Below, in pieces: positions 1,777-18,968 of a DNA stretch of 64,000 nt. The position numbers and the translations under genes are program-made. A model generated the notes under the pieces. It ran no database searches. It was not told the DNA's origin and saw nothing but the letters and a program-made list of their open reading frames with translations. Source of the stretch: a phage; the sequence record PV357171.2. The stretch is one strand, 5' to 3'. The number at the start of each line of letters is the position of its first letter. The stretch's first letter is position 1.

Positions 1777-2029
1777 AATTTAGGTTTCTGCTTCCTAGAG
1801 AACGGACTCCTAGATAAACAAGGCGATGAGTTTCCGGCCGGTTCTAGTCGCTGAAAATCCTCCCGACCAGGTAGGTGTAAGTAAATGAAAGTTTACTTAT
1901 TGAGTAGGTTCCGATAGACCGGCGGGTCTATTCTGGCATTTAAGAGAGGTCTCGCAAACTTCTTTGTCAGCCGTGGGGTTGGTAGCCTCCAGGTGGCCTA
2001 CACAATAAGTAAATTTATTAAAAATTCAT

Positions 2030-2058
2030 TTGCTATTCTGCTTAATTCTCTGTATAAT
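2030..2058 (+). promoter_or_regulatory. sigma70-type promoter (TTGCTA-N17-TATAAT) with A/T-rich upstream tract
   Basis: -35/-10 hexamers with 17-bp spacer read directly; 32 nt upstream of tRNA-Pro. Confidence 0.6.
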
Positions 2059-2089
2059 ATATTTTATAAAGTGAGTTAACAAAAATTAA

Positions 2090-2165
2090 CAGTGCGTAGC
2101 GCAGTTGGTAGCGTGGGAGCCTTGGGTGCTTCGGGTCGCAGGTTCGAGTCCTGCCGCACTGACCA
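2090..2165 (+). tRNA. tRNA-Pro (anticodon TGG)
   Basis: Acceptor CAGTGCG/CGCACTG, anticodon stem GGAGC/GCTTC, loop CTTGGGT, T-arm GCAGG-TTCGAGT-CCTGC, 3' ACCA. Confidence 0.75.
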
Positions 2166-2171
2166 AACAAT

Positions 2172-2249
2172 TGCGGGTTAGATCTCTGGTAGAGATCGCT
2201 AGTCTCATAAGCTAGAAAGAGGTAGGTTCGATTCCTGCACCCGCTTCCA
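2172..2249 (+). tRNA. tRNA-Met (anticodon CAT); could be elongator, initiator or Ile2
   Basis: D-stem GATC/GATC, anticodon stem CTAGT/GCTAG, loop CTCATAA, T-loop TTCGATT, 3' TCCA; 1:72 positions T/T unpaired. Confidence 0.65.
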
Positions 2250-2269
2250 TTTTAATAGAGGATTTCGAA

Positions 2270-2434
2270 ATGAAAGTATTTCGATTAGTAGTAAGTGACA
2301 AACGGTTAGGTAAGAATACATCAAAATCCTTACTTGCTCATTATGGTAAAAATTGGGATGAAGTAATGGCAGAGTTTAATACTAATCACCCTTACTTGAA
2401 AGTTCACTCTATTAAGGAAGTTTATGCTTATTAA
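2270..2434 (+). CDS. hypothetical small protein (54 aa)
   Basis: ATG preceded by TAGAGGA Shine-Dalgarno; below the 60-aa cutoff of the ORF track. Confidence 0.3.
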   Translation: MKVFRLVVSDKRLGKNTSKSLLAHYGKNWDEVMAEFNTNHPYLKVHSIKEVYAY

Positions 2435-2897
2435 CAGGGTGCTTCAAGCTCTAGATCTTCCAGAGCTCTTTACTATTACCGACCCCTTAATACATCGGTA
2501 TATGGAAAAGTATAATGAAATCTCTGGTAAAAAAGGGAAACTAAAATCCTCAGAATTTAAGTTCTGTTATAGAATGGCAGCATTAAACCTCTTAAAGTAC
2601 AAGAGGGAGCATAAAATCCCTATAACAGAAGGATTTGTCTATGTAATAGGTAGTCCAGCATGGCCTGGACTATATAAGATAGGTATGACAGTAGATGTGA
2701 ATGAAAGACTGTCTAGTTATCAAACATATTCGCCTTATCGTGATTACAAGTTATACCATTTCAGATTCTCCTCGGACAAGAGAAGAACTGAAAAAGCATT
2801 ACATAACCTTCTGAAGGACTACAAAGTATCAGGAGAATGGTTTGAAGTACCTCTGTTAGACGCCTTCAAACTATTAGTAGAAAATTTGGATTGCTAA
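2424..2897 (+). CDS. T5orf172 / GIY-YIG-like domain protein
   Basis: 157 aa; GFVYVIGSPAWPGLYKIGMT...ERL matches the T5orf172 (MUG113) domain pattern. Confidence 0.65.
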   Translation: MLINRVLQALDLPELFTITDPLIHRYMEKYNEISGKKGKLKSSEFKFCYRMAALNLLKYKREHKIPITEGFVYVIGSPAWPGLYKIGMTVDVNERLSSYQTYSPYRDYKLYHFRFSSDKRRTEKALHNLLKDYKVSGEWFEVPLLDAFKLLVENLDC

Positions 2898-2965
2898 CTC
2901 AACTGGATAAGAGTACCGGACCTTTAATCCGTCAGTTCTGGGTTCGAATCCCAGGCAATCCACCA
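2888..2965 (+). tRNA. tRNA, anticodon probably TTT (Lys), isotype uncertain
   Basis: Acceptor GGATTGC/GCAATCC, T-arm CTGGG-TTCGAAT-CCCAG, 3' ACCA; anticodon stem has a top mismatch and C at position 33; 5' end overlaps the upstream CDS. Confidence 0.55.
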
Positions 2966-2983
2966 ATTTCAAGAAAAACTCAG

Positions 2984-3012
2984 TTGCTTGATGCTTAATT
3001 TCTTGTTATAAT
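2984..3012 (+). promoter_or_regulatory. sigma70-type promoter (TTGCTT-N17-TATAAT)
   Basis: Hexamers with 17-bp spacer; followed by palindrome TGATGAGGAGAAATCCTCATCA. Confidence 0.55.
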
Positions 3013-3250
3013 ATTTATATAAATTGATGAGGAGAAATCCTCATCATAGTTCACTAAGGTATTAGCTCGACCTAGGACTGGCTGCCAAAAAGCACGATCC
3101 CTACGATTTGGGAGAAGTTCTAGATTAGTCCACTAGATTCAGCGGCAACTGAATAGTGTATCGGTTTTGCGAGATGACGCGGTTCCTTCCGCTCGAAGCG
3201 AAGGTGCTGTAGTTACGCCGAGCTAATAGCCTTAGTAAACTAAGGAATTT

Positions 3251-3324
3251 GGGGATATAGTTTAATGGTAGAACATCTGCTTTGCACGCAGAAGACGAGG
3301 GTTCAACTCCCTCTTTCTCCACCA
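3251..3324 (+). tRNA. tRNA-Ala (anticodon TGC)
   Basis: Acceptor GGGGATA/TTTCTCC, anticodon stem TCTGC/GCAGA, loop TTTGCAC, T-arm GAGGG-TTCAACT-CCCTC, 3' ACCA. Confidence 0.7.
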
Positions 3325-3329
3325 AATTT

Positions 3330-3414
3330 GGGGCTATGCTGGAACTGGTAGACAATACGGCCTTAGATTCCGTAGCTTAAATGCGTGGGAGTTCGAGTCT
3401 CCCTAGCCCCACCA
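3330..3414 (+). tRNA. tRNA-Leu (anticodon TAG), long variable arm
   Basis: Acceptor GGGGCTA/TAGCCCC, anticodon loop CTTAGAT, 85 nt with extra arm, T-arm GGGAG-TTCGAGT-CTCCC, 3' ACCA. Confidence 0.7.
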
Positions 3415-3430
3415 ACTTATAGGGTAATGT

Positions 3431-4015
3431 ATGCAGTTTGTACCAATAAAAGATGCACCAGGGTATTTAGTAAATGAAACAGGGGATGTGTTATCTACAT
3501 TTACTAATAAAATCTTATCAAGATATATAGTTGATGGGTACCCTGCTGTAAAATTACAGATAAATGGTAAGCAAACTTCGGTACTTATACACCGAATTAT
3601 TTCTCATGTATTTGGGGACTTATATAATCTATTTGACCCTGAATTAGAAGTAGATCACAAGGATAGAGATAGGCTGAATCTATCTAAAGATAATCTTCAA
3701 GTTTTATCAAAAATAGAACATCAGAAGAAAACTAATAAAGATAATGGATGGTCTGATAGTAGAGTACCTTGCCCCTTATGTGGAAATCTAATGCTTCAGA
3801 GATCAGTAACATGTACAAATTGTAAGCCAAAACCTACAGGAAAGTTAATAAAACCAGAATTGTCCTTAGAAGACATAACTGAAAAGGTTTTATTAATGGG
3901 GTGGGTTAAGGCAGCTAAAGATCTAGAAGTATCAGAGTCCACTTTACGTAGACGATATACTAAACTAACCGGATTAAGCCCGAAAGTATTAACAGAACAA
4001 CGGAAAAGCAAATAG
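3431..4015 (+). CDS. HNH homing endonuclease
   Basis: 194 aa; ELEVDHKDRD HNH motif, C-terminal CPLCG...CTNC zinc-finger-like pairs; paralog of 760..1341. Confidence 0.75.
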   Translation: MQFVPIKDAPGYLVNETGDVLSTFTNKILSRYIVDGYPAVKLQINGKQTSVLIHRIISHVFGDLYNLFDPELEVDHKDRDRLNLSKDNLQVLSKIEHQKKTNKDNGWSDSRVPCPLCGNLMLQRSVTCTNCKPKPTGKLIKPELSLEDITEKVLLMGWVKAAKDLEVSESTLRRRYTKLTGLSPKVLTEQRKSK

Positions 4016-4095
4016 ACTGGTGACTAAACCCGATTGGAAATCGGTTGAGTGGTAGCAATACCGCCTTATGGGTTCAACTCCCATCTTTTCCGCCA
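4002..4095 (+). tRNA. tRNA-Ser (anticodon GGA), long variable arm
   Basis: Acceptor GGAAAAG/CTTTTCC, anticodon loop TTGGAAA, 94 nt, T-arm ATGGG-TTCAACT-CCCAT, 3' GCCA; overlaps the 3' end of the HNH CDS. Confidence 0.6.
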
Positions 4096-4107
4096 AACAA
4101 TTTATAT

Positions 4108-4202
4108 GGTAGGTCAATCCAATGGCTGGCGCTGGACTCCGACTTGAAATCGGTTGATCGTAGTGATACGGTGTAAGGGTTCGATCCCCTTACCTACCTC
4201 CA
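4108..4202 (+). tRNA. tRNA-Ser (anticodon TGA), long variable arm
   Basis: Acceptor GGTAGGT/ACCTACC, anticodon loop CTTGAAA, T-arm AAGGG-TTCGATC-CCCTT, 3' TCCA. Confidence 0.6.
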
Positions 4203-4253
4203 AATCTTGAAGTATGCCGGAATCGGTAGACGGGGCTGCCTAAAAGGTTTATA

Positions 4254-4340
4254 GGGAACATCCACTCCCTGCAACATACCTCATAAAGCGGCTGAGATAA
4301 ATGGTCTATCTCGTGAAGGTTCAAGTCCTTCTGCTTCTTG
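4254..4340 (+). other. tRNA-like element, no encoded CCA, poor acceptor pairing
   Basis: Clean T-arm GAAGG-TTCAAGT-CCTTC but the acceptor needs wobbles and a mismatch, and the 3' end is TGAT. Confidence 0.25.
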
Positions 4341-4568
4341 ATACATCTATGGCTCAAAGTGTAACGGTGCTATTTGATGCTCTTGGTAAGACTTCCCCGA
4401 CATGCGTTCGGGAGTAAGCTGCTAAGACTAGAGTAGAAGAGTTTCTGAGAGCCGCCACAATTGAAAATTCGTACTCGTCTTGAGCTGCGTGCAATAGGAG
4501 ATAACTTGATTAGTATTCTAGAACATGCTAATTGAGGATGGTTTCGCTAACCCTGCGAGTTTTCAATT

Positions 4569-4645
4569 GTGGCTATATCATAATTGGTTAATGATCCTGA
4601 TTGTGAATCAGGCCTATGTGGATTCGAATTCCACTAGCCACCCCA
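4569..4645 (+). tRNA. tRNA-His (anticodon GTG)
   Basis: Acceptor GTGGCTA/TAGCCAC, anticodon stem CCTGA/TCAGG, loop TTGTGAA, T-arm GTGGA-TTCGAAT-TCCAC, 3' CCCA. Confidence 0.75.
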
Positions 4646-4670
4646 AATTAACTTAAATAGGAAATAAAAT

Positions 4671-4871
4671 ATGGCTGATTTCTGCAAGCAATGCTCCCTT
4701 GATATGTGGGGCAGAGATACTGGTGACTTATCTGGTCTGATTACAGAAGCCGAAGTCAAAGAAGGTTATAGTGCAGTTGTGATTTGTGAAGGCTGCGGTG
4801 TTATCCGTGTAGACCACACCGGTAAGCGTTTGGAAGAACCAGTTCCAATTGCGCAAGTTCCTGTAGAATAA
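4671..4871 (+). CDS. hypothetical small protein with CxxC...CxxC pairs
   Basis: 66 aa; AGGAAA upstream of ATG; CKQC and CEGC pairs suggest a zinc ribbon. Confidence 0.5.
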   Translation: MADFCKQCSLDMWGRDTGDLSGLITEAEVKEGYSAVVICEGCGVIRVDHTGKRLEEPVPIAQVPVE

Positions 4872-4879
4872 AAAATTAT

Positions 4880-4955
4880 TGGAGTGTAGCTCAACTGGCA
4901 GAGCGACGGTTTCTGACACCGTAGGTTTCTAGTTCGATCCTAGACATTCCAGCCA
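4880..4955 (+). tRNA. tRNA-Gln (anticodon CTG)
   Basis: Acceptor TGGAGTG/CATTCCA (one G-U), anticodon stem ACGGT/ACCGT, loop TTCTGAC, T-arm TCTAG-TTCGATC-CTAGA, 3' GCCA. Confidence 0.65.
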
Positions 4956-4961
4956 AACAAT

Positions 4962-5039
4962 TGGGGATTAGCTTAGCTTGGCCTAAAGCTTCGGCCTTTG
5001 AAGTCGAGATCATTGGTTCAAATCCAATATCCCCTGCCA
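4962..5039 (+). tRNA. tRNA-Gln (anticodon TTG)
   Basis: Anticodon stem TCGGC/GTCGA, loop CTTTGAA, T-arm ATTGG-TTCAAAT-CCAAT, 3' GCCA; 1:72 unpaired. Confidence 0.6.
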
Positions 5040-5047
5040 AACAATAA

Positions 5048-5123
5048 GCGATTAAGCACACGGGTTGTGCCGCAGGCCTTCCAAGCCCCGCTGAGTAGGG
5101 TTCGATTCCCTCTAGCCGCTCCA
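5048..5123 (+). tRNA. tRNA, isotype uncertain (possibly Gly, anticodon TCC)
   Basis: Acceptor GCGATTA/TAGCCGC with one mismatch, T-loop TTCGATT, 3' TCCA; anticodon stem is weak. Confidence 0.5.
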
Positions 5124-5140
5124 ACTTTAAGGAAACATTT

Positions 5141-5362
5141 ATGCACGTTTTTGAGTTTCGTGATAAAAGTAACAATAAACGAGTTATTGTTATTGGAGAA
5201 ACATACCTAGCATACGAACAAACTGATGGCTCTGTTATCTTGAATGATGAGAAAGCAAATTTTAGCTTTTATCCAGAAGAACCTTATGAAGAGTTTCGTA
5301 CTAAGTTTCTTTTACCAGACTGGCTAGCAGTAGCCGAGCAACGAGAATCCGAAGATGGCTGA
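5141..5362 (+). CDS. hypothetical protein
   Basis: 73 aa; AAGGAAA Shine-Dalgarno before ATG. Confidence 0.5.
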   Translation: MHVFEFRDKSNNKRVIVIGETYLAYEQTDGSVILNDEKANFSFYPEEPYEEFRTKFLLPDWLAVAEQRESEDG

Positions 5363-5519
5363 TAACCTAAAATTAAGGGTTGACAAACAAAAGAAATACG
5401 TTGAGGTTGAATTAGGCGAAGAACGCTTAAAGCTAACTTTCGAGTTTCTTCAGCAGTTGGCTATGACAGTCATGACTGATAAGTCTCCTGTTATTGAAAA
5501 AGAAATCCCGTTGAAATAG
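5355..5519 (+). CDS. hypothetical small protein (54 aa)
   Basis: ATG overlapping the upstream stop; below ORF-track cutoff; no strong RBS. Confidence 0.3.
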   Translation: MADNLKLRVDKQKKYVEVELGEERLKLTFEFLQQLAMTVMTDKSPVIEKEIPLK

Positions 5520-5527
5520 GAAGCAAC

Positions 5528-5920
5528 ATGGAGTTTACTTGTTTAAATTGCGGAATCACAAAACCTAAAAGTAGGGGTTCCGCAGGTAAGTATTGTGGTG
5601 CTGCTTGTCAGCAGGAGTACCAGACAAAGCAAAAAGTATTAAAGTGGCTGGCAGGTGAAGAACCTGGTTATACTGGTAAAGCTGCACAATTAAAACCTTT
5701 TGTTAGGAAGTGGCTGTGGGATACTCGTGGTACTGCTTGTGAAGTATGTGGTTGGGATGGGAAACATCCAATTGACGGAGCAGTTTTAACTGAGGTAGAT
5801 CATATAGATGGAGATGCAACTAACTGTTCTCCAGAAAATCTAAAGATTCTCTGCCCTAACTGTCACTCTATGACACCTACGCATAGGGCCAGAAATAGAG
5901 TTTCAACAAGACAACGATAG
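5528..5920 (+). CDS. HNH endonuclease (classical HNH with zinc-binding cysteines)
   Basis: 130 aa; EVDHIDGDATNCSPENLKILCPNCH motif. Confidence 0.75.
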   Translation: MEFTCLNCGITKPKSRGSAGKYCGAACQQEYQTKQKVLKWLAGEEPGYTGKAAQLKPFVRKWLWDTRGTACEVCGWDGKHPIDGAVLTEVDHIDGDATNCSPENLKILCPNCHSMTPTHRARNRVSTRQR

Positions 5921-5994
5921 CTCTTAAAGCATTGCTGGCGATGCAACGGTCTTGTAAACCGTGGAACCGGGTTCGATTCCTGGTGGGAGCACCA
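5920..5994 (+). tRNA. tRNA-Thr (anticodon TGT)
   Basis: Acceptor GCTCTTA/TGGGAGC, D-stem GCAT/ATGC, anticodon stem ACGGT/ACCGT, loop CTTGTAA, T-loop TTCGATT, 3' ACCA. Confidence 0.7.
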
Positions 5995-6010
5995 AAATTA
6001 AAAAATTCAT

Positions 6011-6039
6011 TTGCCTTCTCTCTTATTTCTTGTTATAAT
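6011..6039 (+). promoter_or_regulatory. sigma70-type promoter (TTGCCT-N17-TATAAT) with conserved leader
   Basis: Same module as other early promoters: AAAAATTCATTTGC...TATAAT...ATAAATTAATGAGAGG...ATG. Confidence 0.6.
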
Positions 6040-6069
6040 ATTTATATAAATTAATGAGAGGGAAACCAA

Positions 6070-6363
6070 ATGAAACGTTATCTTTCTGTCGTGTTCCAAA
6101 CTGGTGGTCAACGCTACACTTATGAATTTCCTGAGTCCTGGAAAATTAAAGAAGGTGATCAAGTTGTTGTATTAACACCTCGTGAAGGCTTCAAAGTAGT
6201 AACGGTTAAACAAGTATTTCCAAAAGATCACGAACCATCTAAGGCTATTCAGTACAAGATGATTCATGGTCTGGTACGAAAAGTACCTAGAACAGAAGTC
6301 GAAGTAGATAAAACTGGGGAAGCTAAATACCAGTATACCTCTTACTTAGATGAAATGATGTAA
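6070..6363 (+). CDS. hypothetical protein
   Basis: 97 aa; GAGAGGGAAACC leader before ATG. Confidence 0.55.
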   Translation: MKRYLSVVFQTGGQRYTYEFPESWKIKEGDQVVVLTPREGFKVVTVKQVFPKDHEPSKAIQYKMIHGLVRKVPRTEVEVDKTGEAKYQYTSYLDEMM

Positions 6364-6364
6364 T

Positions 6365-6439
6365 GCTCTGATAGTTCAACAGGTTAGAACAGACGACCGA
6401 TAATCGTCAAATCTTGGTTCGATCCCAAGTCGGAGTACC
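6365..6439 (+). tRNA. tRNA-Ile (anticodon GAT)
   Basis: Acceptor GCTCTGA/TCGGAGT with wobbles, anticodon stem GACGA/TCGTC, loop CCGATAA, T-arm CTTGG-TTCGATC-CCAAG, 3' ACCA. Confidence 0.6.
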
Positions 6440-6446
6440 AAATTAT

Positions 6447-6522
6447 AGTTAGTTGGCAGAGTGGTTATGCACCTCCTTCATACGGAGCGACTACAGTGGT
6501 TCAAATCCACTACTAACTACCA
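6447..6522 (+). tRNA. tRNA with anticodon CAT (Met or lysidine-type Ile2)
   Basis: Acceptor AGTTAGT/ACTAACT, anticodon loop TTCATAC, T-arm AGTGG-TTCAAAT-CCACT, 3' ACCA. Confidence 0.65.
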
Positions 6523-6528
6523 AACAGA

Positions 6529-6563
6529 GGATCTGGTCATTGTACCAGATCTCTGTGTTTATT
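6529..6563 (+). terminator. rho-independent terminator
   Basis: Hairpin GGATCTGGT-cattgt-ACCAGATCT followed by a T-rich tract. Confidence 0.5.
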
Positions 6564-6705
6564 AAACTGAATGGGACTATCAATCCACAAGCCGGACTAC
6601 GAGCGATTATCGGGTATTCACTTAATAAACAGCCTGCCCCCCAGTTTTTATCTTGCTTCTGGGTTAACAAAAAGCTGAGCCAAATTCTAATATCAGGGAG
6701 ATCTA

Positions 6706-7074
6706 ATGAAAGCATATCAAAATCTTAAATCCGGCGTAATTAACCTTGTTCATGAAAATCAGATCATTCAGCTATACTCTAAAGACGGTGAACTTAAACA
6801 GAAAGTTCTAGTTGAAGATCTAGAAGGTATCACACCTCACTTTGACCCTGAAGCCTTTCGCATTGTAGATGTGGAAGTGGTTCCCCAAGTCGAGGGTGGT
6901 CAGCACCTAAATGTCAATGTGTTAAGCCGTGATCAGCTTTTAGATGCACAGAAACATCCTGAAAAATATCCTCAGTTGACCATCCGTGTCTCTGGCTATG
7001 CTGTTCGATTTAACGCATTGACGCGTGAACAACAGAACGACGTTATTAGTCGTACATTTACTCAGGCGATATAA
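6706..7074 (+). CDS. hypothetical protein
   Basis: 122 aa; AGGGAG before ATG. Confidence 0.55.
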
Positions 7075-7155
7075 TGGGGTTTGGATACGATTTCTCCCAG
7101 CTACGCAAGGTAGTCGAGCAAACTCCGTTTATCTCCCAAGTTTTAGGAGAAATGT

Positions 7156-7470
7156 GTGGATCGAGCATTAAGACGCCATCACCGGCAACGTGTGAAGAAC
7201 AACCGCAAGAAGTATTGGACAGTCTTTCCACATGAAGAAAGCCCTAAGCGATTAGGTATTATCACTACTACTCCTTGCATCTGTTCTTGCTGGATGTGTG
7301 GGAACCCTCGCAAATATTATAAGAATAGTAAAGCAGGTATGAAAACCTCGGAGATCAGGAAAATGGGAGCAATGATTATGGGCATCTCAAATGATGAATT
7401 TGATGGCTTTGTAGGATTCGGAGAAGGAACTAGCTCAGGCTGTTTCGAATATGAACTCCCCGATCTGTGA
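7156..7470 (+). CDS. hypothetical basic protein (GTG start)
   Basis: 104 aa; AGGAG 6 nt upstream of GTG; an alternative 51-aa ORF from ATG 7074 overlaps. Confidence 0.45.
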   Translation: MDRALRRHHRQRVKNNRKKYWTVFPHEESPKRLGIITTTPCICSCWMCGNPRKYYKNSKAGMKTSEIRKMGAMIMGISNDEFDGFVGFGEGTSSGCFEYELPDL

Positions 7471-7481
7471 TTAACAACAAA

Positions 7482-7515
7482 CCCCAGCTATGGAATAAGT
7501 AGTCTGGGGTTTTTC
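7482..7515 (+). terminator. rho-independent terminator
   Basis: CCCCAG...CTGGGG hairpin followed by TTTTTC. Confidence 0.5.
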
Positions 7516-7591
7516 TATATACAGGTAAATAATTTATGTATAATAAAATTCACCCACATTAGGTTAATTCAAAAGACTTAATGGAGGTAAT

Positions 7592-7939
7592 ATGAGCCGT
7601 ACTTATCGTAGACAAACTGGTGATCAGTGGTGGAAGTCTAAAGCTAATTACACCCAGGGGTATACTTTCCTCAAAGCAAGTGGCTACTGGATTCGTGTTA
7701 TTTATGCTAAATCCTGGGATGATGTAGAACAGGAAATGAAGGAAGCAACTGTTCGTAATGAGAAAAAGGATGGTTATAACTGGAATTCTATTAGTAAGAA
7801 TGTTAAGTGGCATTCTAATAAAATGGTTCGTCAAGGGAATCGTCAAGAACTCCACCGCGTGATGAAAGATCCAGAAAATTATGATTATAATCGCGATCAT
7901 GACATGCGTAAGCGTGGATTATGGTGGTGCTATGACTAA
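7592..7939 (+). CDS. hypothetical protein
   Basis: 115 aa; GGAGG Shine-Dalgarno. Confidence 0.55.
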   Translation: MSRTYRRQTGDQWWKSKANYTQGYTFLKASGYWIRVIYAKSWDDVEQEMKEATVRNEKKDGYNWNSISKNVKWHSNKMVRQGNRQELHRVMKDPENYDYNRDHDMRKRGLWWCYD

Positions 7940-7956
7940 ATTCTGAAATAATTCAT

Positions 7957-7985
7957 TTGCTAAACCTCTCTTTTCTTGCTATAAT
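7957..7985 (+). promoter_or_regulatory. sigma70-type promoter (TTGCTA-N17-TATAAT)
   Basis: Conserved early promoter-leader module upstream of ORF 8016. Confidence 0.6.
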
Positions 7986-8015
7986 ATATTTATAAATTGA
8001 TGAGAGAGGTTTGAA

Positions 8016-8297
8016 ATGAAAACTCGTCTAGACTGTGCTGTTCATGTTCTTGAACATGATGTTGTGGGAACCTGTATGTCTTACCACGAAGCAGGTCGTT
8101 TAATTAAAGAACGTGTGGCAGATGTGTGCGGATTGAAGATTACTGCTGAGGAAGCTGATGATCTTTTAGGTCAAGCACTAGAGAAAACCGAAATGTTTCT
8201 CTGCGATTCTTGTTCTTGGTGGTGTGAAGCTCACGAACGTTCTTTCAACGATTATGATGTATGTCGTGATTGTAGTGGGGAGGATGAAGATGAATAA
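8016..8297 (+). CDS. hypothetical Cys-rich protein
   Basis: 93 aa; GAGAGAGG leader; ends ...GEDEDE with stop inside GATGAATAA overlap. Confidence 0.55.
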   Translation: MKTRLDCAVHVLEHDVVGTCMSYHEAGRLIKERVADVCGLKITAEEADDLLGQALEKTEMFLCDSCSWWCEAHERSFNDYDVCRDCSGEDEDE

Positions 8298-12282: not shown

Positions 12283-12294
12283 TCAAGGATCGCT

Positions 12295-12894
12295 ATGACT
12301 AATAAAAAAGAAGAAAAGACTAACCTGTTTCACTCCATTCGCCAATCTAACGAGTATACCTTTTTCTTTGATGAAGAGTTAGGCCCGCCGGATGAATACC
12401 GTGATTTATCAATGGTACTTATGCAGGCACATGAGGACGACGAAATTAATCTGATGATTAATGGCCCGGGTGGTTATGTTGATACTGCTGCACAGTTATC
12501 TAACTTAATTGCTAATTGCCGTGGAACAGTTATAGGACACCTGATTGGTCCTAGTGCTTCTGCTTACTGCACAATTTTCCTATCCTGTCATGGATGGGTA
12601 GTACATCCACATGCTACGCTAATGGGACACACGTTCTCTGGCGGATTCTGTGAGAAGGGTCAAGAAATCAAGAAAGCCTATGAATCTTACAACAAGTTCG
12701 TAGAAGATATGATGCTAGATGTCTACTATCCGTTCTTCTCAATAGACGAAATCGACGAGATGGTAAAAGACAACAAAAATATCTATCTAGATAGCAAAGA
12801 AATCCATAAGCGTATTGAAATCTTGGCAAAATATCGATCTGAGCAATATAATAAAGCCCAGTTACCTCAATCAGAGGAGCATAACGAAGAGTAA
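12295..12894 (+). CDS. ClpP-like serine peptidase (S14 family), putative
   Basis: 199 aa; GPSASAY resembles the ClpP active-site serine motif, with downstream His-rich segment. Confidence 0.45.
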   Translation: MTNKKEEKTNLFHSIRQSNEYTFFFDEELGPPDEYRDLSMVLMQAHEDDEINLMINGPGGYVDTAAQLSNLIANCRGTVIGHLIGPSASAYCTIFLSCHGWVVHPHATLMGHTFSGGFCEKGQEIKKAYESYNKFVEDMMLDVYYPFFSIDEIDEMVKDNKNIYLDSKEIHKRIEILAKYRSEQYNKAQLPQSEEHNEE

Positions 12895-12904
12895 GTAATT
12901 TTAA

Positions 12905-12935
12905 GCCAGGGTTTAACGACCCTGGCTTTTCTTTT
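12905..12935 (+). terminator. rho-independent terminator
   Basis: GCCAGGGT-ttaac-GACCCTGGC hairpin followed by TTTTCTTTT. Confidence 0.55.
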
Positions 12936-13050
12936 ATCTAAAATTCTTCTTGACAACGACAAAATTTTATGCTCCAGAAGTGATCTTTAAAAACACATTG
13001 TAATTTTCCTCCAAAATTAGTATAATGGTACTGGTTAGAGGAGGTTACAA

Positions 13051-13707
13051 TTGGAAAAGTTCTTACAATTATTAACGGTACTGCTCCAAGAAGCGAAAGA
13101 TCCAGCATCGCTTCTTAAACGTCTGCTAACTATCTTAGTTGCTGTCATTATTTTCTTATTTGTTAGTAATACTAGCGAGGTGATGTCATTCTTAAAGACT
13201 TTCTCCACGTCTGCGGTTCTACAGGATGTTCAAACTCAAAGGATAGATAACTTTCCTAATGTAGCTAGAGAAAAGAGCATGGTACTTTTTTCTCAAACGG
13301 GTGCGGATGCTGTTTTTGTCGTCAAGTATAAACCAGATGCTATTAATGATTATTCTAACATTATTGCATGGGAAAGCAATGCGCAATTAGATAGGGCTGA
13401 CTTGGCCGATAAAGCGGTAAATAAAACGTCTGAGCTATATAGACGTCACTTGGAGGGCTTTAACTACGCATCGGATTTAAGTGTAAAAGTAAATAAATAC
13501 ATGGGGTTAAATATACCTGCGTTTAAGAACGTTACTTTTAATTACATATACACTTGTCCGTATTTCAATCTAAACAATATCTATGCTGGATATATTGGTA
13601 TTGCTTGGAAAGATAACCCTGTAGATGCAGCCGATTCTGAGAAATTTAAGGAATATTTAACAAAGCTCTGTTCACCACAACAGAGATCTTTAGGTAGATC
13701 AATATGA
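13051..13707 (+). CDS. putative holin (TTG start)
   Basis: 218 aa with one N-terminal transmembrane helix, GAGGAGG before TTG, immediately upstream of and overlapping the endolysin gene. Confidence 0.45.
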   Translation: MEKFLQLLTVLLQEAKDPASLLKRLLTILVAVIIFLFVSNTSEVMSFLKTFSTSAVLQDVQTQRIDNFPNVAREKSMVLFSQTGADAVFVVKYKPDAINDYSNIIAWESNAQLDRADLADKAVNKTSELYRRHLEGFNYASDLSVKVNKYMGLNIPAFKNVTFNYIYTCPYFNLNNIYAGYIGIAWKDNPVDAADSEKFKEYLTKLCSPQQRSLGRSI

Positions 13708-14117
13708 GTTTTAAATTTGGTAAAAATAGCGAAAAACAATTAGCTACCGTTAAGCCAGAGCTACAAAAAGTAGCTCGTAGAGCTTTAGAATTATCTCCAT
13801 ATGATTTCACGATCGTACAAGGTATTCGTACAGTAGCACAAAGTGCCCAGAATATTGCTAATGGTACTTCATTTTTAAAAGATCCTAGTAAAAGTAAGCA
13901 TATTACTGGGGATGCCCTTGATTTTGCTCCATACATTAATGGCAAAATTGATTGGAATGACTTAGAAGCATTTTGGGCAGTTAAAAAGGCTTTTGAACAG
14001 GCCGGTAAAGAACTAGGCGTTAAACTTCGTTTTGGTGCTGATTGGAATGCTTCGGGAGATTATCACGATGAAATAAAACGTGGTACCTATGATGGCGGTC
14101 ATGTCGAACTAGTTTAA
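13704..14117 (+). CDS. endolysin, L-alanyl-D-glutamate peptidase-type
   Basis: 137 aa; size and position match the T5 endolysin as recalled; conserved H/D residues consistent with a zinc peptidase. Confidence 0.65.
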   Translation: MSFKFGKNSEKQLATVKPELQKVARRALELSPYDFTIVQGIRTVAQSAQNIANGTSFLKDPSKSKHITGDALDFAPYINGKIDWNDLEAFWAVKKAFEQAGKELGVKLRFGADWNASGDYHDEIKRGTYDGGHVELV

Positions 14118-14128
14118 TTAATAACTGA

Positions 14129-14151
14129 GGCGGGAATACTCCCGCCTTTTT
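14129..14151 (+). terminator. rho-independent terminator
   Basis: GGCGGGA-atac-TCCCGCC hairpin followed by TTTTT. Confidence 0.6.
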
Positions 14152-14194
14152 AGGCAAAGGGGGCTTTAATAATTTTTAAAGATAGGAGAAAGCC

Positions 14195-14611
14195 ATGTTT
14201 GCAGAACTATTCACTATGATGCTGCTAGGTATCTGGAAAATAAGTCTAGTAGTATTCGTTTTAATGATAGTCTTTACTATCCTTGCATTAACTACCCGAA
14301 ATAGCTTATTAATAAAGGTTATTCACGGACTAGAGTATATAATTATGGGTTCATTCGGCGTTTGTAAATGCAATTGCCATAGAGATACGAAATATTGTTG
14401 GTTATGGATGGAACTAGAGAATCCTATATCCATAGCTTTGGCTGTTTCATTCGGTATGATTCTTATGGCCCTTACTCTAGCATTAATACCTTTGATGTTA
14501 GCTGGGGGAGTTACAGCGTATTTCACCCTTTTCTCCCCGATACTTATGTACTCAATTTACCCAATAACTATGTATCTAGTTAGGAAAAGATTTATACATG
14601 CAGTAGATTAA
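14195..14611 (+). CDS. hypothetical multi-pass membrane protein
   Basis: 138 aa; several hydrophobic helices; AGGAGAAAG before ATG. Confidence 0.5.
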   Translation: MFAELFTMMLLGIWKISLVVFVLMIVFTILALTTRNSLLIKVIHGLEYIIMGSFGVCKCNCHRDTKYCWLWMELENPISIALAVSFGMILMALTLALIPLMLAGGVTAYFTLFSPILMYSIYPITMYLVRKRFIHAVD

Positions 14612-14624
14612 GATAAAAAAGTAG

Positions 14625-14653
14625 TTGACTTTTAGCCCTAGTTATTATATAAT
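14625..14653 (+). promoter_or_regulatory. sigma70-type promoter (TTGACT-N17-TATAAT)
   Basis: Hexamers with 17-bp spacer upstream of ORF 14687. Confidence 0.6.
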
Positions 14654-14686
14654 ATATACATAAATTAGTTAAGAGAGGTATATATT

Positions 14687-15118
14687 ATGTCTGATCGTTT
14701 CTATACTCAAATGGCGGAACATTTTCGTATACCACATTACGAGCTAAACATTGCACTCCGTGATCATGACTCTCCTGAGTACAAAAAGCTCGAAAAGAAA
14801 GCGGAAAAATCTATTGATACAAAGGTAGGTGCATCTATGTCTAAGGGCAAAAAGTTAACTCGTCTTGATCTTAATAAAATTTTAACTGAACTTTTGGGTA
14901 CTGATATTGAAGGTGCTAAATTACCGCTTCTTGTACTAGAGACTATGATTAAAAAGGTCAAAAATAAAGAGTATAAAAAGGTAGAAGTCCCAGAAGGCAG
15001 ATTGAAAGCTCCTTATCAGGAGGCATTAACCGAGTGTTTGGGTGTAAATCTTGATCTAAGCACCGCAACCGTAAAAACTATGAGAAACTTCTTAGAGGCC
15101 ATTAATAACTATGAGTAA
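14687..15118 (+). CDS. hypothetical protein
   Basis: 143 aa; AGAGAGG leader. Confidence 0.55.
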   Translation: MSDRFYTQMAEHFRIPHYELNIALRDHDSPEYKKLEKKAEKSIDTKVGASMSKGKKLTRLDLNKILTELLGTDIEGAKLPLLVLETMIKKVKNKEYKKVEVPEGRLKAPYQEALTECLGVNLDLSTATVKTMRNFLEAINNYE

Positions 15119-15401
15119 ATTAGTATATCTATTAAAAGGTTCCACCTGTAACCCGTGTAAACTTTTCGAGCCAGTATTTGATAAAGTAGTCAATGAATAT
15201 AATTTGGAAGTCCATAAAGAGACTGATAATACAGAATTAATGCAGAAATTTGGCGTACGCCAAGTTCCTGTAGTAGTTCTGGCGGATCGCTTACCTAATG
15301 GTCGAGTAGAAGCTAATCATATTTTGATTGGACGTCAGCTTCGTAAAGAAACTATGCACGAAGCTATTAAAAATTTCCTGGATGATAATCCAGAGGATTA
15401 A
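15111..15401 (+). CDS. thioredoxin/glutaredoxin-fold protein, putative
   Basis: 96 aa; CNPC dithiol motif near the N-terminus. Confidence 0.45.
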   Translation: MSKLVYLLKGSTCNPCKLFEPVFDKVVNEYNLEVHKETDNTELMQKFGVRQVPVVVLADRLPNGRVEANHILIGRQLRKETMHEAIKNFLDDNPED

Positions 15402-15409
15402 TAAACCAA

Positions 15410-15440
15410 GCCTGATCTTAGCGGATCAGGCTTTTATTTT
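15410..15440 (+). terminator. rho-independent terminator
   Basis: GCCTGATC-ttagcg-GATCAGGC hairpin followed by TTTTATTTT. Confidence 0.6.
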
Positions 15441-15442
15441 AC

Positions 15443-15471
15443 TTGCTTTCAGCTAAAAATTTTGGTATAAT
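15443..15471 (+). promoter_or_regulatory. sigma70-type promoter (TTGCTT-N17-TATAAT, extended -10 TGG)
   Basis: Hexamers plus TGn directly upstream of -10. Confidence 0.6.
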
Positions 15472-15498
15472 ACTTATATAAATTGATAGGAGGATTAA

Positions 15499-15744
15499 AT
15501 GTTAGCGGAACAAGCAAAACGTTTAGCTAGGATAAATAGAGCCGCGTCCCTCAAGAGCCGAAAGAAAACGTATAGATGGGTTAAGCGGAGGATAGTATCT
15601 TCTGTCGAGATTGGAGGTTCTTTTGTACAGCTTAATCGTGACGAAATTAGTTATGAAGCTATAAAAGCCCTCAATAAAGAGGGTTATACTCTCAAACTAT
15701 CAAATAATTATGGTACAACTATTTTAAATGTTATTTGGGAATAA
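15499..15744 (+). CDS. hypothetical protein
   Basis: 81 aa; TAGGAGG Shine-Dalgarno. Confidence 0.5.
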   Translation: MLAEQAKRLARINRAASLKSRKKTYRWVKRRIVSSVEIGGSFVQLNRDEISYEAIKALNKEGYTLKLSNNYGTTILNVIWE

Positions 15745-15746
15745 TT

Positions 15747-16610
15747 ATGAAAAAAGAATTTAATGTGCATAAAACACTAGTAGTACCTGATGATGTTAAC
15801 TTATTCTTTGTTGGTGATATTCATGGATGCAACGATTTACTAGAAGATGCACTACAATTAGCTGGCTATAACGGCAAGAAAGATTGCGTTGTATGCGTGG
15901 GAGATTTAATTGATCGAGGCACGCAGAACCTACAAGTTTTAGCCAAATTCCTGTATAATCCACGCTTTATCAGTGTACGTGGTAATCATGACCAATTTAT
16001 GATTGTGGGAGATTGGGCTAACTGGATGTATAACGGTGGTATGTGGGCCATGAATGAACTAGATGCAGATACCATTAAAAATATTGCTGAAGACATGGCT
16101 GAAAAAATGCCAGTATTTCTGACTGTATTGCATCGTGGTAAAAAGTATGGTGTTGTTCATGGTGGTGTACCTTTTACGTACAAAGAATGCGGTAACGAAG
16201 TAGAAACCCCAGTATGGGATAGCCTTATTGCACAAGTAGAAGCAGCTAAGGAAGACCCACATGACCATCCTGGATACCATGTTGAGCCATACTTATGGGA
16301 TCGAGATGTAATCCAAGAAATAGGTTTTCACTTAGCTAAAAATGGTGAAGAACACTCACATTTCCAGCGTTATGCAGGGTTTAAAGAGAAATACATGGTA
16401 GAAGTACCTCCGGTTAATGGAGTAGACTTTGTATTTCATGGGCATACCGGAGTACCTTACCCGATTTTATACCAGAACCGTGTTTACCTAGATACTGGCG
16501 GTGTTTTCAACGGGCAGTTGACGGTTGCGCAGGTTAACGATGAAACTGGCAAAATCACCACATTTACCACAGACAAAAATGATAGCTGCGGTGTACAGAG
16601 GATCCTTTAA
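15747..16610 (+). CDS. Ser/Thr protein phosphatase (calcineurin-like metallophosphoesterase)
   Basis: GDIHGC, GDLIDRG and RGNHD motifs; start set at ATG after the upstream stop (track start 15735). Confidence 0.8.
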   Translation: MKKEFNVHKTLVVPDDVNLFFVGDIHGCNDLLEDALQLAGYNGKKDCVVCVGDLIDRGTQNLQVLAKFLYNPRFISVRGNHDQFMIVGDWANWMYNGGMWAMNELDADTIKNIAEDMAEKMPVFLTVLHRGKKYGVVHGGVPFTYKECGNEVETPVWDSLIAQVEAAKEDPHDHPGYHVEPYLWDRDVIQEIGFHLAKNGEEHSHFQRYAGFKEKYMVEVPPVNGVDFVFHGHTGVPYPILYQNRVYLDTGGVFNGQLTVAQVNDETGKITTFTTDKNDSCGVQRIL

Positions 16611-16897
16611 TGAATGATAGAATGAAAGAAGTACAAGAAGAATTACGAGCAATGCGTATTGATGCCCTTCGTTGGAGGGCATTAGTTAATGCTTTCGTCA
16701 AAGGAGATACCGGAGTAATATATTCTGGAATAGCAGTCAATTTTTGTTTTAATTCTCCTGCTGAAATAGAGATAGAAACAAGGCTTACTACCTACCTTAA
16801 TGAGGTAGACCTTAAGGAAGGAGAGACTCCCGAGGAGTTTAAAACTAGAGTATTAACTACCTGGGTTGATAATTTAATACAAAAAAGGAGTAAGTGA
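16610..16897 (+). CDS. hypothetical protein
   Basis: 95 aa; TAATG overlap with upstream stop. Confidence 0.5.
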   Translation: MNDRMKEVQEELRAMRIDALRWRALVNAFVKGDTGVIYSGIAVNFCFNSPAEIEIETRLTTYLNEVDLKEGETPEEFKTRVLTTWVDNLIQKRSK

Positions 16898-17487
16898 TGA
16901 AGGTTAAATTCTGGTCAGACTTGCACTTAGACCACCCTGGAGCACTACGTTTCCGTCCGTGGTTTAAGAACATGAAAGAGCACGATGAGTATATTCTAGA
17001 TACTTTGTCCAAGCATATTGGTAAACGAACAAAACTTATTTTGCTAGGAGATATTGCAGTAGGTCGTGAAGGTCTGGCCAAATTAAAGTCGGTTATCCAC
17101 AATGTCCCTAATCAACTCATTATGGGTAATCATGATGCGGAGCGTCAAGGACTGAGTATTAGGGACTTAGCGGAAGTTTATGATGATATTCAGGCTCTAG
17201 GTAAACAGACTGGAGGTGGCAAAAAGTTTTGGCTATCTCACTGCCCTTTGCATCCCAATGAACTTCGTGGCAAACTAAATATTCATGGACACGTACATAC
17301 TACTTCTCTACGTGATCCACGTTATATCAATGTTTCATTTGAAATGAGTAAAACTCCAATTCCTCTAGAGGATATTGTGTCTGGTAAGTTTACTAGCTAT
17401 GATAAAGTAGTTAATTGTACTACCGGCGAGGTATTACAAATAGGGGAAGACGTAGCTGCTGTATTACGTGGGGATATAAATGTCTGA
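16897..17487 (+). CDS. metallophosphoesterase
   Basis: LGDIAVGREG, GNHD and GHVH motifs; AAGGAG before ATG. Confidence 0.6.
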   Translation: MKVKFWSDLHLDHPGALRFRPWFKNMKEHDEYILDTLSKHIGKRTKLILLGDIAVGREGLAKLKSVIHNVPNQLIMGNHDAERQGLSIRDLAEVYDDIQALGKQTGGGKKFWLSHCPLHPNELRGKLNIHGHVHTTSLRDPRYINVSFEMSKTPIPLEDIVSGKFTSYDKVVNCTTGEVLQIGEDVAAVLRGDINV

Positions 17488-17602
17488 GTATATAGCTGAG
17501 GCTATTATTAAACGAATCATACAAGCGATAGCAATACTTATAATCATTTGTATTGCTATTGGTACAGGATTAGGCATTTTAATTAAAAGTTTTATTTGCT
17601 AA
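17480..17602 (+). CDS. hypothetical small membrane peptide (40 aa)
   Basis: ATG overlapping the upstream stop; hydrophobic; below track cutoff and overlaps the next promoter. Confidence 0.25.
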   Translation: MSEYIAEAIIKRIIQAIAILIIICIAIGTGLGILIKSFIC

Positions 17603-17624
17603 AATGCTTAAGTTTCTGTATAAT
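17596..17624 (+). promoter_or_regulatory. sigma70-type promoter (TTGCTA-N17-TATAAT)
   Basis: Hexamers with 17-bp spacer upstream of ORF 17655. Confidence 0.6.
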
Positions 17625-17654
17625 TACTTTATAAATTGATGAGAAGGAATCAAA

Positions 17655-18086
17655 ATGAACAAAGTTGATAAAGCTCTAGTTTTCGCAGCAGCAGATAAGT
17701 TTGAACAAGTTAAGGCAACTTTCCGAACCTTGTTCCAGTCTTACGTTCAGGATAAGTCTAATCCTATCTCTGAACGTTTGATGGTCTGGGAATGTCATGC
17801 TTGCAATGCCCTATTAATTGCGGATTATCGTAGCGATATAGATAAAGATCTGTGCGAAATTCTTATCGCTGAGGAGGCAGAACGTTATCAGTTAATCTCT
17901 TTCCAAGATTTGGCGGAGCATATCATTCCTGATGATCTTTGGGATAAATACTACGGTGATCCTGAGGACGAAGGATTGACTCCAGAAGCCTGTATTGAGC
18001 TAATCTGCAAAGATCATCCTGAAATTGCAGAGAAATTTGAAAAAGTTTTTGCTTCTGAGTTCTCCGGCGTTGTTAACGATTGGTAA
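17655..18086 (+). CDS. hypothetical acidic protein
   Basis: 143 aa; GAAGGAA Shine-Dalgarno. Confidence 0.55.
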   Translation: MNKVDKALVFAAADKFEQVKATFRTLFQSYVQDKSNPISERLMVWECHACNALLIADYRSDIDKDLCEILIAEEAERYQLISFQDLAEHIIPDDLWDKYYGDPEDEGLTPEACIELICKDHPEIAEKFEKVFASEFSGVVNDW

Positions 18087-18103
18087 GTAATTAAAAAATT
18101 CAG

Positions 18104-18132
18104 TTGCTTTAAGCCTTAAAATTCTGTATAAT
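18104..18132 (+). promoter_or_regulatory. sigma70-type promoter (TTGCTT-N17-TATAAT)
   Basis: Hexamers with 17-bp spacer; conserved ATAAATTAATGAGAGAGG leader. Confidence 0.6.
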
Positions 18133-18164
18133 AAGTTCATAAATTAATGAGAGAGGAAATTCTA

Positions 18165-18443
18165 ATGGAAAACATGACTAAAGACTTCGACGCCTCTAAC
18201 CTTACCAAGACTGAAATGGCCAATGTATTAGCAATTCTCCTCGACATGCAAGGATTTGAGGGGCAACTGATGAAAATGTCTATTCCGGCGATGAAGAAGA
18301 TGTATGATTCTCTTAACAAGAACGCTATGGCCTTTAACTTAGCAAAACAAGAGGCACGCTTTGCTAAGGAGCATCAAGCAGTGGCAGAACGCCGAGCAGC
18401 TAGCTTTGAGCGTGAAGTCAAGCAATTAAAGAAAAAATGCTAA
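18165..18443 (+). CDS. hypothetical protein
   Basis: Start set at ATG after the GAGAGG leader (track start 18147 lies inside the leader). Confidence 0.5.
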   Translation: MENMTKDFDASNLTKTEMANVLAILLDMQGFEGQLMKMSIPAMKKMYDSLNKNAMAFNLAKQEARFAKEHQAVAERRAASFEREVKQLKKKC

Positions 18444-18967: not shown

Positions 18968-18968
18968 A

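Follow-up and report, generated by a model that had tools for sequence, protein, structure and literature searches.

The window analysed here, a 64,000-nucleotide stretch of phage DNA (sequence record PV357171.2), belongs to a T5-like phage (Tequintavirus). In the window comparison, which returned 564 related records, identity to Tequintavirus genomes is approximately 94%, a value also found for AKFV33, and T5 is collinear with the window but in reverse orientation. Throughout the early region a promoter-like unit, named here after the first position of its -35 hexamer, recurs ahead of protein-coding and RNA genes (table 1). A first-pass annotation had proposed at least nine copies. All nine are present where it placed them and align without gaps, with the exception of 2030, where one additional base follows the -10 hexamer ahead of ATAAA. 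Scanning with a matrix built from these nine sites brought up two more: 35866 (minus strand, score 47.5), beyond the range of that annotation, and 293 (plus strand, score 26.1), the top score across 20 shuffled windows being 4.0. The family in the window thus numbers eleven. The small ORF T5.066, found after T5 P13a, is missing here, and so the 2030 promoter runs directly into tRNA-Pro and tRNA-Met. The 6011 promoter serves the T5.058 ortholog and, after it, tRNA-Ile and tRNA-Met; the structured RNA downstream of 2984 is followed by tRNA-Ala (3251) and tRNA-Leu (3330); and 35866 lies ahead of llp, an early-expressed lipoprotein gene.

Table 1. Early promoter modules and associated features in the window, with predicted transcription starts and T5 counterparts.
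Feature	Position	Strand	-35	-10	Predicted +1	ATG	Counterpart in T5
Weaker family member	273-352	+	293		328		P14a
Early promoter module	2010-2090	+	2030-2035	2053-2058	2066		P13a
Early promoter module	2964-3046	+	2984	3007-3012	3019		P13b
Structured non-coding RNA, putatively driven by the 2984 promoter	3047-3250	+					misc_RNA "RNA2H" (stable RNA)
Early promoter module	5991-6069	+	6011		6046	6070	P11
Early promoter module	7937-8015	+	7957		7992	8016	Unnamed promoter 26722-26796
Early promoter module	10062-10141	+	10082		10117	10142	Promoter 24443-24517
Early promoter module	14605-14686	+	14625 (TTGACT)		14660	14687	Promoter 19368-19442
Intrinsic-terminator-like hairpin	15408-15433	+					Terminator annotated at the orthologous place
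Early promoter module	15423-15498	+	15443		15478	15499	Promoter 18550-18624
Early promoter module	17576-17654	+	17596		17631	17655	P-F30
Early promoter module	18084-18164	+	18104		18139	18165 (likely)	Promoter 16245-16319
Eleventh member	35806-35886	-	35866 (start)		35831		Promoter 110349-110423

TATAAT with 17-bp spacing is found in all nine original sites, and the -35 hexamer is TTGCYW in eight of them (TTGCCT at 6011), site 14625 being the exception. An A-rich block occupies approximately -46 to -41 in eight sites, with leave-one-out ranks of 4e-5 to 5e-3, whereas a T tract takes its place at 15443. Downstream of the -10 come an AT-rich discriminator of the ATATT type and, over +1 to +10, a segment homologous to (C)ATAAATT(T)GA, with variants at 2030 (a one-base shift, ATAAAGTGA) and 10082 (ATAGATTGA; transcribed segment ATAGATTGAGG); the corresponding segment of 293 is divergent (CTAATTTGG). 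The +1 positions were assigned by alignment to N25, as numbered from -12 to +2 in PMC7472727. With this numbering, the "leader" ATAAATTGATGAGAGAGG, matched exactly by the 7957 module, resolves into the initially transcribed sequence (+1 to about +10) and a Shine-Dalgarno sequence (about +11 to +18; near +13 in the 6011 module). Since the start codon lies at +22 to +28 across the mRNA leaders, the conserved "leader" represents the entire, very short 5' UTR.

Could such a resemblance be the chance likeness of AT-rich sigma-70-like sites? A generic sigma-70 scan would agree with this, given that hexamer pairs show no excess in the window (54 versus 58.9 in shuffles). However, TTGCTA-N17-TATAAT with at most one mismatch yields 11 matches against 1.28 expected, a count reached in 0 of 100 shuffles. 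The 18-nt leader, allowing three mismatches or fewer, has four matches in the 64-kb window (0.13 expected), all immediately 3' of hexamer pairs of this type, and no occurrence of the motif away from a promoter was found in the 64 kb. In leave-one-out scoring four segments proved informative, namely the 20 nt upstream, spacer, discriminator and +1 to +10; with any one of them, the majority of held-out sites rank within about the top 1e-2 to 1e-5 of window positions. The paralogs have in common a mean of 31.7 of 63 non-hexamer positions, compared with 16.6 +/- 3.7 in random 75-mers. The likeness therefore reaches past the -35 and -10 into the A block, spacer, discriminator and initially transcribed sequence. 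Pattern counts, matrix scan, leave-one-out results and paralog identity are all far past chance, and the sites are kept at orthologous positions in four genomes; together they refute chance similarity, to which we assign practically no probability.

The relationship to T5 is equally clear. All eleven sites coincide with promoters annotated as 75-bp features in the T5 RefSeq entry (P14a, P13a, P13b, P11, P-F30, five unnamed promoters and the llp promoter), while AKFV33 RefSeq marks all nine original sites as "T5 promoter consensus TTGCTT (N17-18) TATAATA". This one-to-one correspondence bears out the earlier assignment of the repeats as promoters; the observation that a conserved transcribed segment is common to promoters preceding unrelated genes is also supported. 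The PN25 sequence (...TTGCTTTCAGGAAAATTTTTCTGTATAATAGATTCATAAATTTGAGAGAGGAGTT) belongs to the same family; PN25 itself is absent from the window, its T5 position (63043-63117) falling beyond the part of the genome covered. Similarities with the T5 early promoters comprise the A block at -43, TTGCTT/A, the 17-bp spacer, TATAAT(A), the AT-rich discriminator, (C)ATAAATT(T)GA with a Shine-Dalgarno sequence of the GAGAGG type after it, and positional orthology. Differences from T5 are limited to minor substitutions, the 75-nt stretch from -55 to +20 of 18104 being identical, although the flanking cassettes differ. The consensus published for 32 AKFV33 promoters (TTGCTw, TATAATA, AAAAATT at -43 and TAAATT at +1; PMC3326045) is the very motif of the first-pass annotation; in contrast to this phage, AKFV33 has an additional ORF after its 15443 ortholog, with divergence there from about +8. 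Across the four genomes the -10 hexamer is invariant and the -35 hexamer differs in 6% of cells, with higher values for +1 to +10 (12%), the A block (16%), +11 to +19 (30%) and the far-upstream region (32%).

When applied to T5, the nine-site matrix detects 31 sites, 30 of which are annotated or known promoters: 29 within the early region (16.2-75.5 kb) plus the llp promoter. None was found with this matrix in the pre-early and late regions of T5. The 31st site is the reverse-strand echo of P11, and a minus-strand match at 6069 in the window (score 24) has the same nature: the core of the 6011 promoter is AT-palindromic, and the match is that core read on the opposite strand, not a separate promoter. 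This echo reappears in T5, AKFV33 and Sepoy.

The repeats are thus very probably sigma-70-dependent early promoters of a T5-like phage, members of the classic T5 PN25 family that offer a composite signal to host RNA polymerase. For the T5 orthologs, the literature documents that host sigma-70 RNA polymerase initiates transcription and that it does so with early kinetics (PMC7472727, PMC12464699); promoter activity in this particular phage we infer from the sequence comparison. The observation of a repeated unit is correct but not new, because the unit is the well-known strong T5-type early promoter that stands ahead of successive early operons. The T5 early promoters reportedly include PN25, PN26, PK28a, PH207, P11, P13a/b, P15a and P-F30 (Gentz & Bujard 1985; annotation of Wang et al. 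2005). Descriptions of the family, of its extended consensus and of what the transcribed part does go back to the mid-1980s, with promoters annotated in reference genomes, and PN25-type promoters are in use in expression vectors. For the annotation of T5-like phages the repeats are helpful, as they mark the starts of early-region transcription units.

How might the composite signal operate? The A-rich block at about -46 to -41 resembles a proximal UP-element subsite and might be contacted by the alpha C-terminal domain. The proximal subsite of the E. coli rrnB P1 UP element is said to be an A tract likewise situated directly 5' of the -35 (Estrem et al. 1999); the T5 block is shorter, with a T tract substituting at 15443. 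Next comes the core, formed by a TTGCT(T/A) -35, a 17-bp spacer often with GCTTAA...TCTG and a perfect TATAAT -10, and then a discriminator of 6-7 nt consisting wholly of A and T (ATATTT and variants). Transcription would begin at an A and proceed through the conserved initially transcribed sequence ATAAATTGA, the leader remainder (GAGAGAGG or AGGAG) being the Shine-Dalgarno sequence. The high information content probably enables T5-type early promoters to out-compete host promoters, with escape adjusted by the transcribed part. The repeated units head successive short early operons that would yield mRNAs, tRNAs and stable RNAs. Not all members conform to this scheme, which is otherwise the best explanation: 15443 is without the A block, and the transcribed segments of 293 and 2030 are divergent.

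The first-pass annotation also described a palindrome standing in place of a gene after the 2984 promoter. The palindrome is real, with stems at 3025-3033 and 3038-3046, forming in the transcript (+7 to +28) a 9-bp hairpin made up in part of the conserved motif. It does not replace a gene, however, and instead heads the transcript of an RNA gene. The RNA at 3047-3250 has a fold z-score of -6.3, and its helices are conserved, some showing two-sided changes.

Why the first transcribed bases should be conserved is a separate question. The equivalent segment of N25, covering the same +1 to +18 as the leader here, is the "downstream sequence region" (Kammerer et al. 1986; Hsu laboratory); the majority of window promoters read TTGATGAG where N25 has TTTGAGAG. 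According to PMC12464699, citing Kammerer 1986, full-length RNA drops about 10-fold in vitro when N25 +3 to +20 is replaced, and escape then takes about 45 min instead of about 3; the effect arises with purified RNA polymerase alone. Alternatively, the shared leader could work as RNA, as the first-pass annotation suspected in suggesting a leader-binding regulator or a processing site: a translational regulator or enhancer site (e.g., S1 on the AU-rich 5' end) or an RNase site. Each of the nine predicted leaders does have an AU-rich, unpaired 5' end, and the leaders are uniform in length. Nevertheless, apart from the 2984 hairpin the leaders are unstructured, the mRNA leaders (21-27 nt) having fold z-scores near zero (-1.3 to +1.4), and no shared RNA structure was found; an Rfam search of positions 1-20000 at E <= 0.1 gave tRNA-type matches only and none to the leaders; and the motif is never promoter-free within the 64 kb. 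Moreover, the promoters of RNA genes retain ATAAATTGA or ATAAAGTGA in the absence of any ORF, and this persistence ahead of untranslated tRNA and stable-RNA genes points to a role at the level of transcription and not translation. The function published for the PN25 segment, promoter escape with purified RNA polymerase, also speaks against a leader-binding regulator. We therefore consider an RNA-level role very improbable.

Escape from the promoter may not fully explain the conservation either. The window promoters have a conserved T-G step at +7/+8, and steps of this kind made escape slower in a high-throughput study (PMC5961368), which sits uneasily with a segment optimised for escape. Furthermore, the module including CATAAATTGA is also present in Vibrio phage Ceto, as would not be predicted by a purely E. 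coli-specific optimum. The (C)ATAAATTGA motif and its discriminator are in fact conserved across Demerecviridae, from phages of E. coli and Salmonella to Ceto. In this context, we put forward as an unlikely scenario that the discriminator and +1 to +10 are above all a tag of the early class, through which a phage factor or a polymerase modified by one (e.g., gpT5.026, D5) brings about shut-off of early promoters at the onset of late transcription. In this scenario the elements are still promoters, and the difference concerns the purpose of the extra conservation. Confinement of the motif to early-class T5 promoters, with absence from the pre-early and late ones, agrees with such a tag, as does its retention in the Vibrio-infecting relative. 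ATATT is common to the discriminators of known T5 early promoters (PMC7472727), gpT5.026 weakens polymerase contacts with N25 from -12 to +2, and the early discriminator has been proposed as the basis of its differential effect (Klimuk et al., PMC7472727). An ortholog of gp026, 99% identical, is encoded at 20105-20566, and the mechanism of the T5 class switch has been described as unexplained (PMC7472727). On the other hand, the effect reported for gp026 is a weak one, at most two-fold in transcription assays, and concerns -5 to +2 instead of +3 to +10 (PMC7472727), the N25 transcribed-sequence effect appears with pure polymerase and no phage factor, and neither binding-site symmetry nor a protein partner was identified in this analysis. 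A class-specific regulator might act via the discriminator or the initially transcribed sequence; we hold it unlikely that (C)ATAAATTGA and the AT-only discriminator constitute a family-wide early-class tag in addition to tuning escape, perhaps a switch-off or pause element for such a factor or modified polymerase. Conservation of the motif reaches well past the phages of E. coli, making it a reasonable handle on the unexplained early-to-late switch of T5-like phages.

The origin of the repeats was likewise considered. The suggestion of modular promoter duplication was not supported, as paralog similarity is essentially star-like and near the column-shuffle null: among the 11 paralogs the best pair (42 of 63 positions) falls at the 95th percentile of that null, and pairwise identity is only marginally structured. 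Solely the identity spread (4.44 versus a 95th percentile of 4.19) and a 28-nt exact run common to 2984 and 6011 exceed it. A shared selected consensus thus accounts for these results just as well as recent duplication.

In a related scenario, the units would be duplication or recombination copies that supply portable homology for the shuffling of gene cassettes. The T4-type promoter/stem-loop cassettes are reportedly an arrangement of this kind, and T4 early promoters are said to recur ahead of many small early operons with a consensus that is likewise extended and takes in an A-rich block upstream (Wilkens & Rueger 1994; Arbiol, Comeau & Krisch 2010). Besides the exact run, homology with T5, AKFV33 and Sepoy breaks inside or beside modules 293, 2030, 2984 and 15443, and the T5 promoters 18550 and 55708 have a terminator tail and spacer in common. 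Yet only 13 of 74 breakpoints, mapped against these three genomes and non-independent, lie within 25 nt of a module, the same four modules being seen repeatedly; with 10 modules spread over about 75 gene boundaries, position alone would roughly predict some 13%, and a role of the modules as recombination junctions was accordingly not supported. Most breaks adjoin homing-endonuclease ORFs and tRNAs, and the common consensus almost fully accounts for paralog similarity. We consider recombinational cassettes improbable. T4 modules differ in sequence and phage family from the T5-type ones, for which a recombination role is not supported. The two are alike in being extended-consensus repeats, some of them placed after terminator hairpins: here, the T tract of the hairpin at 15408-15433 overlaps the upstream part of the 15443 promoter, where the block is T-rich and not A-rich, forming a terminator-promoter cassette.

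The nine sites that the first-pass annotation had described as a single promoter-leader unit reused across the early region are all present, and they share a common layout once extracted in one register. The upstream half of every site comprises an A-rich block, TTGCTW, a 17-bp spacer and TATAAT, with deviant -35 hexamers at 6011 (TTGCCT) and 14625 (TTGACT). Downstream of TATAAT, all nine contain 6-7 AT-only bases followed by ATAAATTGA or a near variant, and in the seven sites preceding an ORF a purine-rich GAGAGG or AGGAG stretch then leads to the ATG. Allowing one mismatch, the hexamer pattern is found at 11 places versus 1.28 expected; with up to three mismatches, the 18-nt leader is found at four versus 0.13 expected, each directly 3' of such a hexamer pair. 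Leave-one-out scoring, in which a held-out site was judged sub-region by sub-region against a matrix of the remaining eight, gave separate signals for four segments: the upstream 20 nt, the spacer, the discriminator and +1 to +10. Mean paralog identity is 31.7 of 63 non-hexamer positions, compared with 16.6 +/- 3.7 in random 75-mers. The nine-site matrix, with which shuffled sequence never scores above 4, adds two window members, one at 35866 (minus strand) and a weaker one at 293. These tests therefore confirm the repeat observation as accurate and statistically solid, and the family in the window has eleven members.

The repeats are the long-known T5 early promoter family, at annotated and orthologous positions. 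For window positions 2000-18200, matches were found in 564 phage records, led by Tequintavirus genomes at approximately 94% identity, and T5 is collinear with the window in reverse orientation, starting at T5 35.9 kb and descending across the collapsed terminal repeat into the late region. The 75-bp "promoter" features in the T5 RefSeq record coincide with all 11 window sites (see table), and in the AKFV33 RefSeq record the nine originally noted places bear promoter annotations, "similar to T5 promoter consensus TTGCTT (N17-18) TATAATA". The classic strong early promoter PN25 of T5 (T5 63043-63117), AAGAATCATAAAAAATTTATTTGCTTTCAGGAAAATTTTTCTGTATAATAGATTCATAAATTTGAGAGAGGAGTT, plainly belongs to the same family as the window modules. 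In AKFV33, 32 such promoters have been reported, with TTGCTw, TATAATA, AAAAATT at -43 and TAAATT at +1, in a paper which also counts T5 promoters among the strongest that E. coli RNA polymerase is known to use (PMC3326045).

Promoter modules of the window, named by the start of the -35 hexamer, with T5 counterparts and ends of homology to relatives
Module	Inferred +1	T5 promoter	Homology ends (window)
293 (+)		P14a	344
2030	2066	P13a	2074
2984	3019	P13b	2965
6011	6046	P11	
7957	7992	26722-26796	
10082	10117	24443-24517	
14625	14660	19368-19442	
15443	15478	18550-18624	15484-15497
17596	17631	P-F30	
18104	18139	16245-16319	
35866 (-)		110349-110423, before llp	

Positions -12 to +2 of N25 are TATAATAGATTCAT (Klimuk et al., PMC7472727), and +1 is therefore the A of CATAAATT. 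By alignment, the so-called leader, ATAAATTGATGAGAGAGG, spans +1 to +18, with a Shine-Dalgarno sequence whose first base falls at about +11 to +16 and start codons at +22 to +28. The "conserved leader" is therefore the entire short 5' UTR, namely the initially transcribed sequence (+1 to ~+10) plus the ribosome-binding site. The position of the A block, about -46 to -41, is that of the proximal UP-element subsite. An ATG occurs at +9 within the conserved leader (TTAATGAGAG). In the 18104 module this codon shares its reading frame with the downstream gene, which mechanical ORF calling therefore begins inside the leader (18147); the start at 18165, 3' of the Shine-Dalgarno sequence, is more plausible. 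A perfect 12-nt AT-only palindrome, ATTTATATAAAT (3014-3025 and 6041-6052, plus strand), covers about -5 to +7 in both the 2984 and the 6011 promoter, and accounts for an "echo" match of the matrix at 6069(-), seen also in T5, AKFV33 and Sepoy.

The module is specific to one promoter class. A search of the whole T5 genome with the matrix from the nine window sites alone returned 31 sites, 29 of which are annotated promoters at 16.2-75.5 kb (the early region), the other two being the llp promoter and a reverse-strand echo of P11; none of the 31 falls in the pre-early terminal repeat or among late genes. The ATAAATTGA segment is missing from late and pre-early promoters, such as PH22, the PG25 ortholog (window 52756) and the holin promoter (12998). 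The ortholog of the late promoter PG25 (52736-52810, plus strand) reads TTGATA-N17-TATAAT, and its leader, ATTAAAGAGGAGAAATTAA, is unlike the early leader and resembles the synthetic RBSII of pQE/pDS vectors. Among orthologs from the window, AKFV33, T5 and Sepoy, the share of ortholog-group-by-position cells that vary is 0% in the -10 hexamer, 6% in the -35 hexamer, 12% at +1 to +10, 16% in the A block, 30% at +11 to +19 and 32% far upstream. As a BLAST query, one 75-bp module found 1744 places in 594 phage records, with phages of Klebsiella, Vibrio, Providencia and Aeromonas among them. Vibrio phage Ceto belongs to a different Demerecviridae subfamily (Ermolyevavirinae), and over 40 kb of its genome (60147-100217) 12 of 17 sites picked solely by TTGNNN-N16-18-TATAAT have CATAAA(T/G)T(T)GA 6-9 bases 3' of the -10 hexamer plus an upstream TTAAAAA; examples with CATAAATTGA after the -10 lie at 7893, 13223, 20017 and 36645 of the fetched segment. 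The module thus characterises the phage family as a whole, a statement that we did not find in the accessible literature.

The best explanation is that each short early operon would be headed by a composite, high-information sigma-70 promoter plus ribosome-binding site. Replacing +3 to +20 of N25 ("antiDSR", Kammerer et al. 1986) lowered full-length RNA about 10-fold and, with purified polymerase, lengthened the escape half-life from ~3 to ~45 min (PMC12464699). The same paper regards the native transcribed sequence, rich in AT and purines, as having evolved for faster escape from a very stable open complex. Promoters of untranslated genes (2984, stable RNA; 2030, tRNA-Pro) retain the +1 to +10 motif, as do those of Ceto before tRNA-Thr and tRNA-Cys, which fits a transcription-level role for +1 to +10, with any translational role confined to the GAGAGG part. 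According to Klimuk et al. (PMC7472727), how T5 switches between promoter classes is not known, ATATT in the discriminator is common to T5 early promoters, and gpT5.026, a polymerase-binding protein, weakens polymerase contacts with N25 at -12 to +2. This protein has been reported to shift the early/late transcript balance. A T-G step at +7/+8 is conserved in the modules, and steps of this type slowed escape in a high-throughput study (PMC5961368). Together with the survival of the motif in Vibrio phages, these data leave room for class-specific control as well as escape behind the extra conservation, which is a lead, not a result. A gpT5.026 ortholog, 99% identical and without a Pfam family, is encoded at 20105-20566 (plus strand).

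The proposal that the leader acts in RNA as a regulator-binding or processing site is not borne out: the mRNA leaders are unstructured, the motif occurs nowhere in the 64-kb window away from a promoter, and an Rfam search of positions 1-20000 (E <= 0.1) matched tRNAs alone, with no match to the leader. Nor does the 2984 promoter precede a palindrome instead of a gene. Its transcript begins at 3019, and the UGAUGAGGA of the conserved motif forms part of a 5' hairpin of 9 bp (3025-3033 with 3038-3046). A structured RNA of ~190 nt (fold z-score -6.3) comes next and then tRNA-Ala and tRNA-Leu, so the promoter does have a gene cluster behind it, a non-coding one. The whole RNA (3019-3250, plus strand; ~230 nt) consists of the 5' hairpin, a long closing helix and internal hairpins. 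It matches no Rfam family and is the ortholog of the T5 stable RNA "RNA2H", annotated in T5 as of unknown function; its helices are kept in T5, AKFV33 and Sepoy, with some two-sided changes (versus Sepoy). Directly after tRNA-Ser(GGA), a tRNA-like sequence without an ARAGORN call (4108-4198, plus strand) matches the tRNA-Sec model at 37.6 bits, below the gathering score, and is probably the ortholog of T5 tRNA-Ser(UGA).

Modular promoter duplication had also been suggested. The eleven paralogs are nearly star-like in similarity, the best pair falling at the 95th percentile of a column-shuffle null, and what exceeds that null is limited to the spread of identities and a single exact run of 28 nt (2984/6011). 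Homology to T5, AKFV33 or Sepoy ends within or at the edge of four modules (see table); at the P13a ortholog (2030) the small ORF T5.066 is absent from the window phage, and AKFV33 carries an additional ORF at 15443. Of the 74 breakpoints, only 13 lie near modules, all repeats of the same four, against a simple gene-boundary expectation of ~13%, and enrichment in modules is not convincing. Given the star-like similarity and this breakpoint count, neither recent duplication nor shuffling of cassettes is demonstrated. Homing-endonuclease-type ORFs lie between tRNA genes and promoters at 760-1341 (NUMOD4), 2424-2897 (T5orf172/MUG113), 3431-4015 (HNH_3) and 18437-18850 (HNH_3), all on the plus strand, and account for several presence/absence differences relative to T5, AKFV33 and Sepoy.
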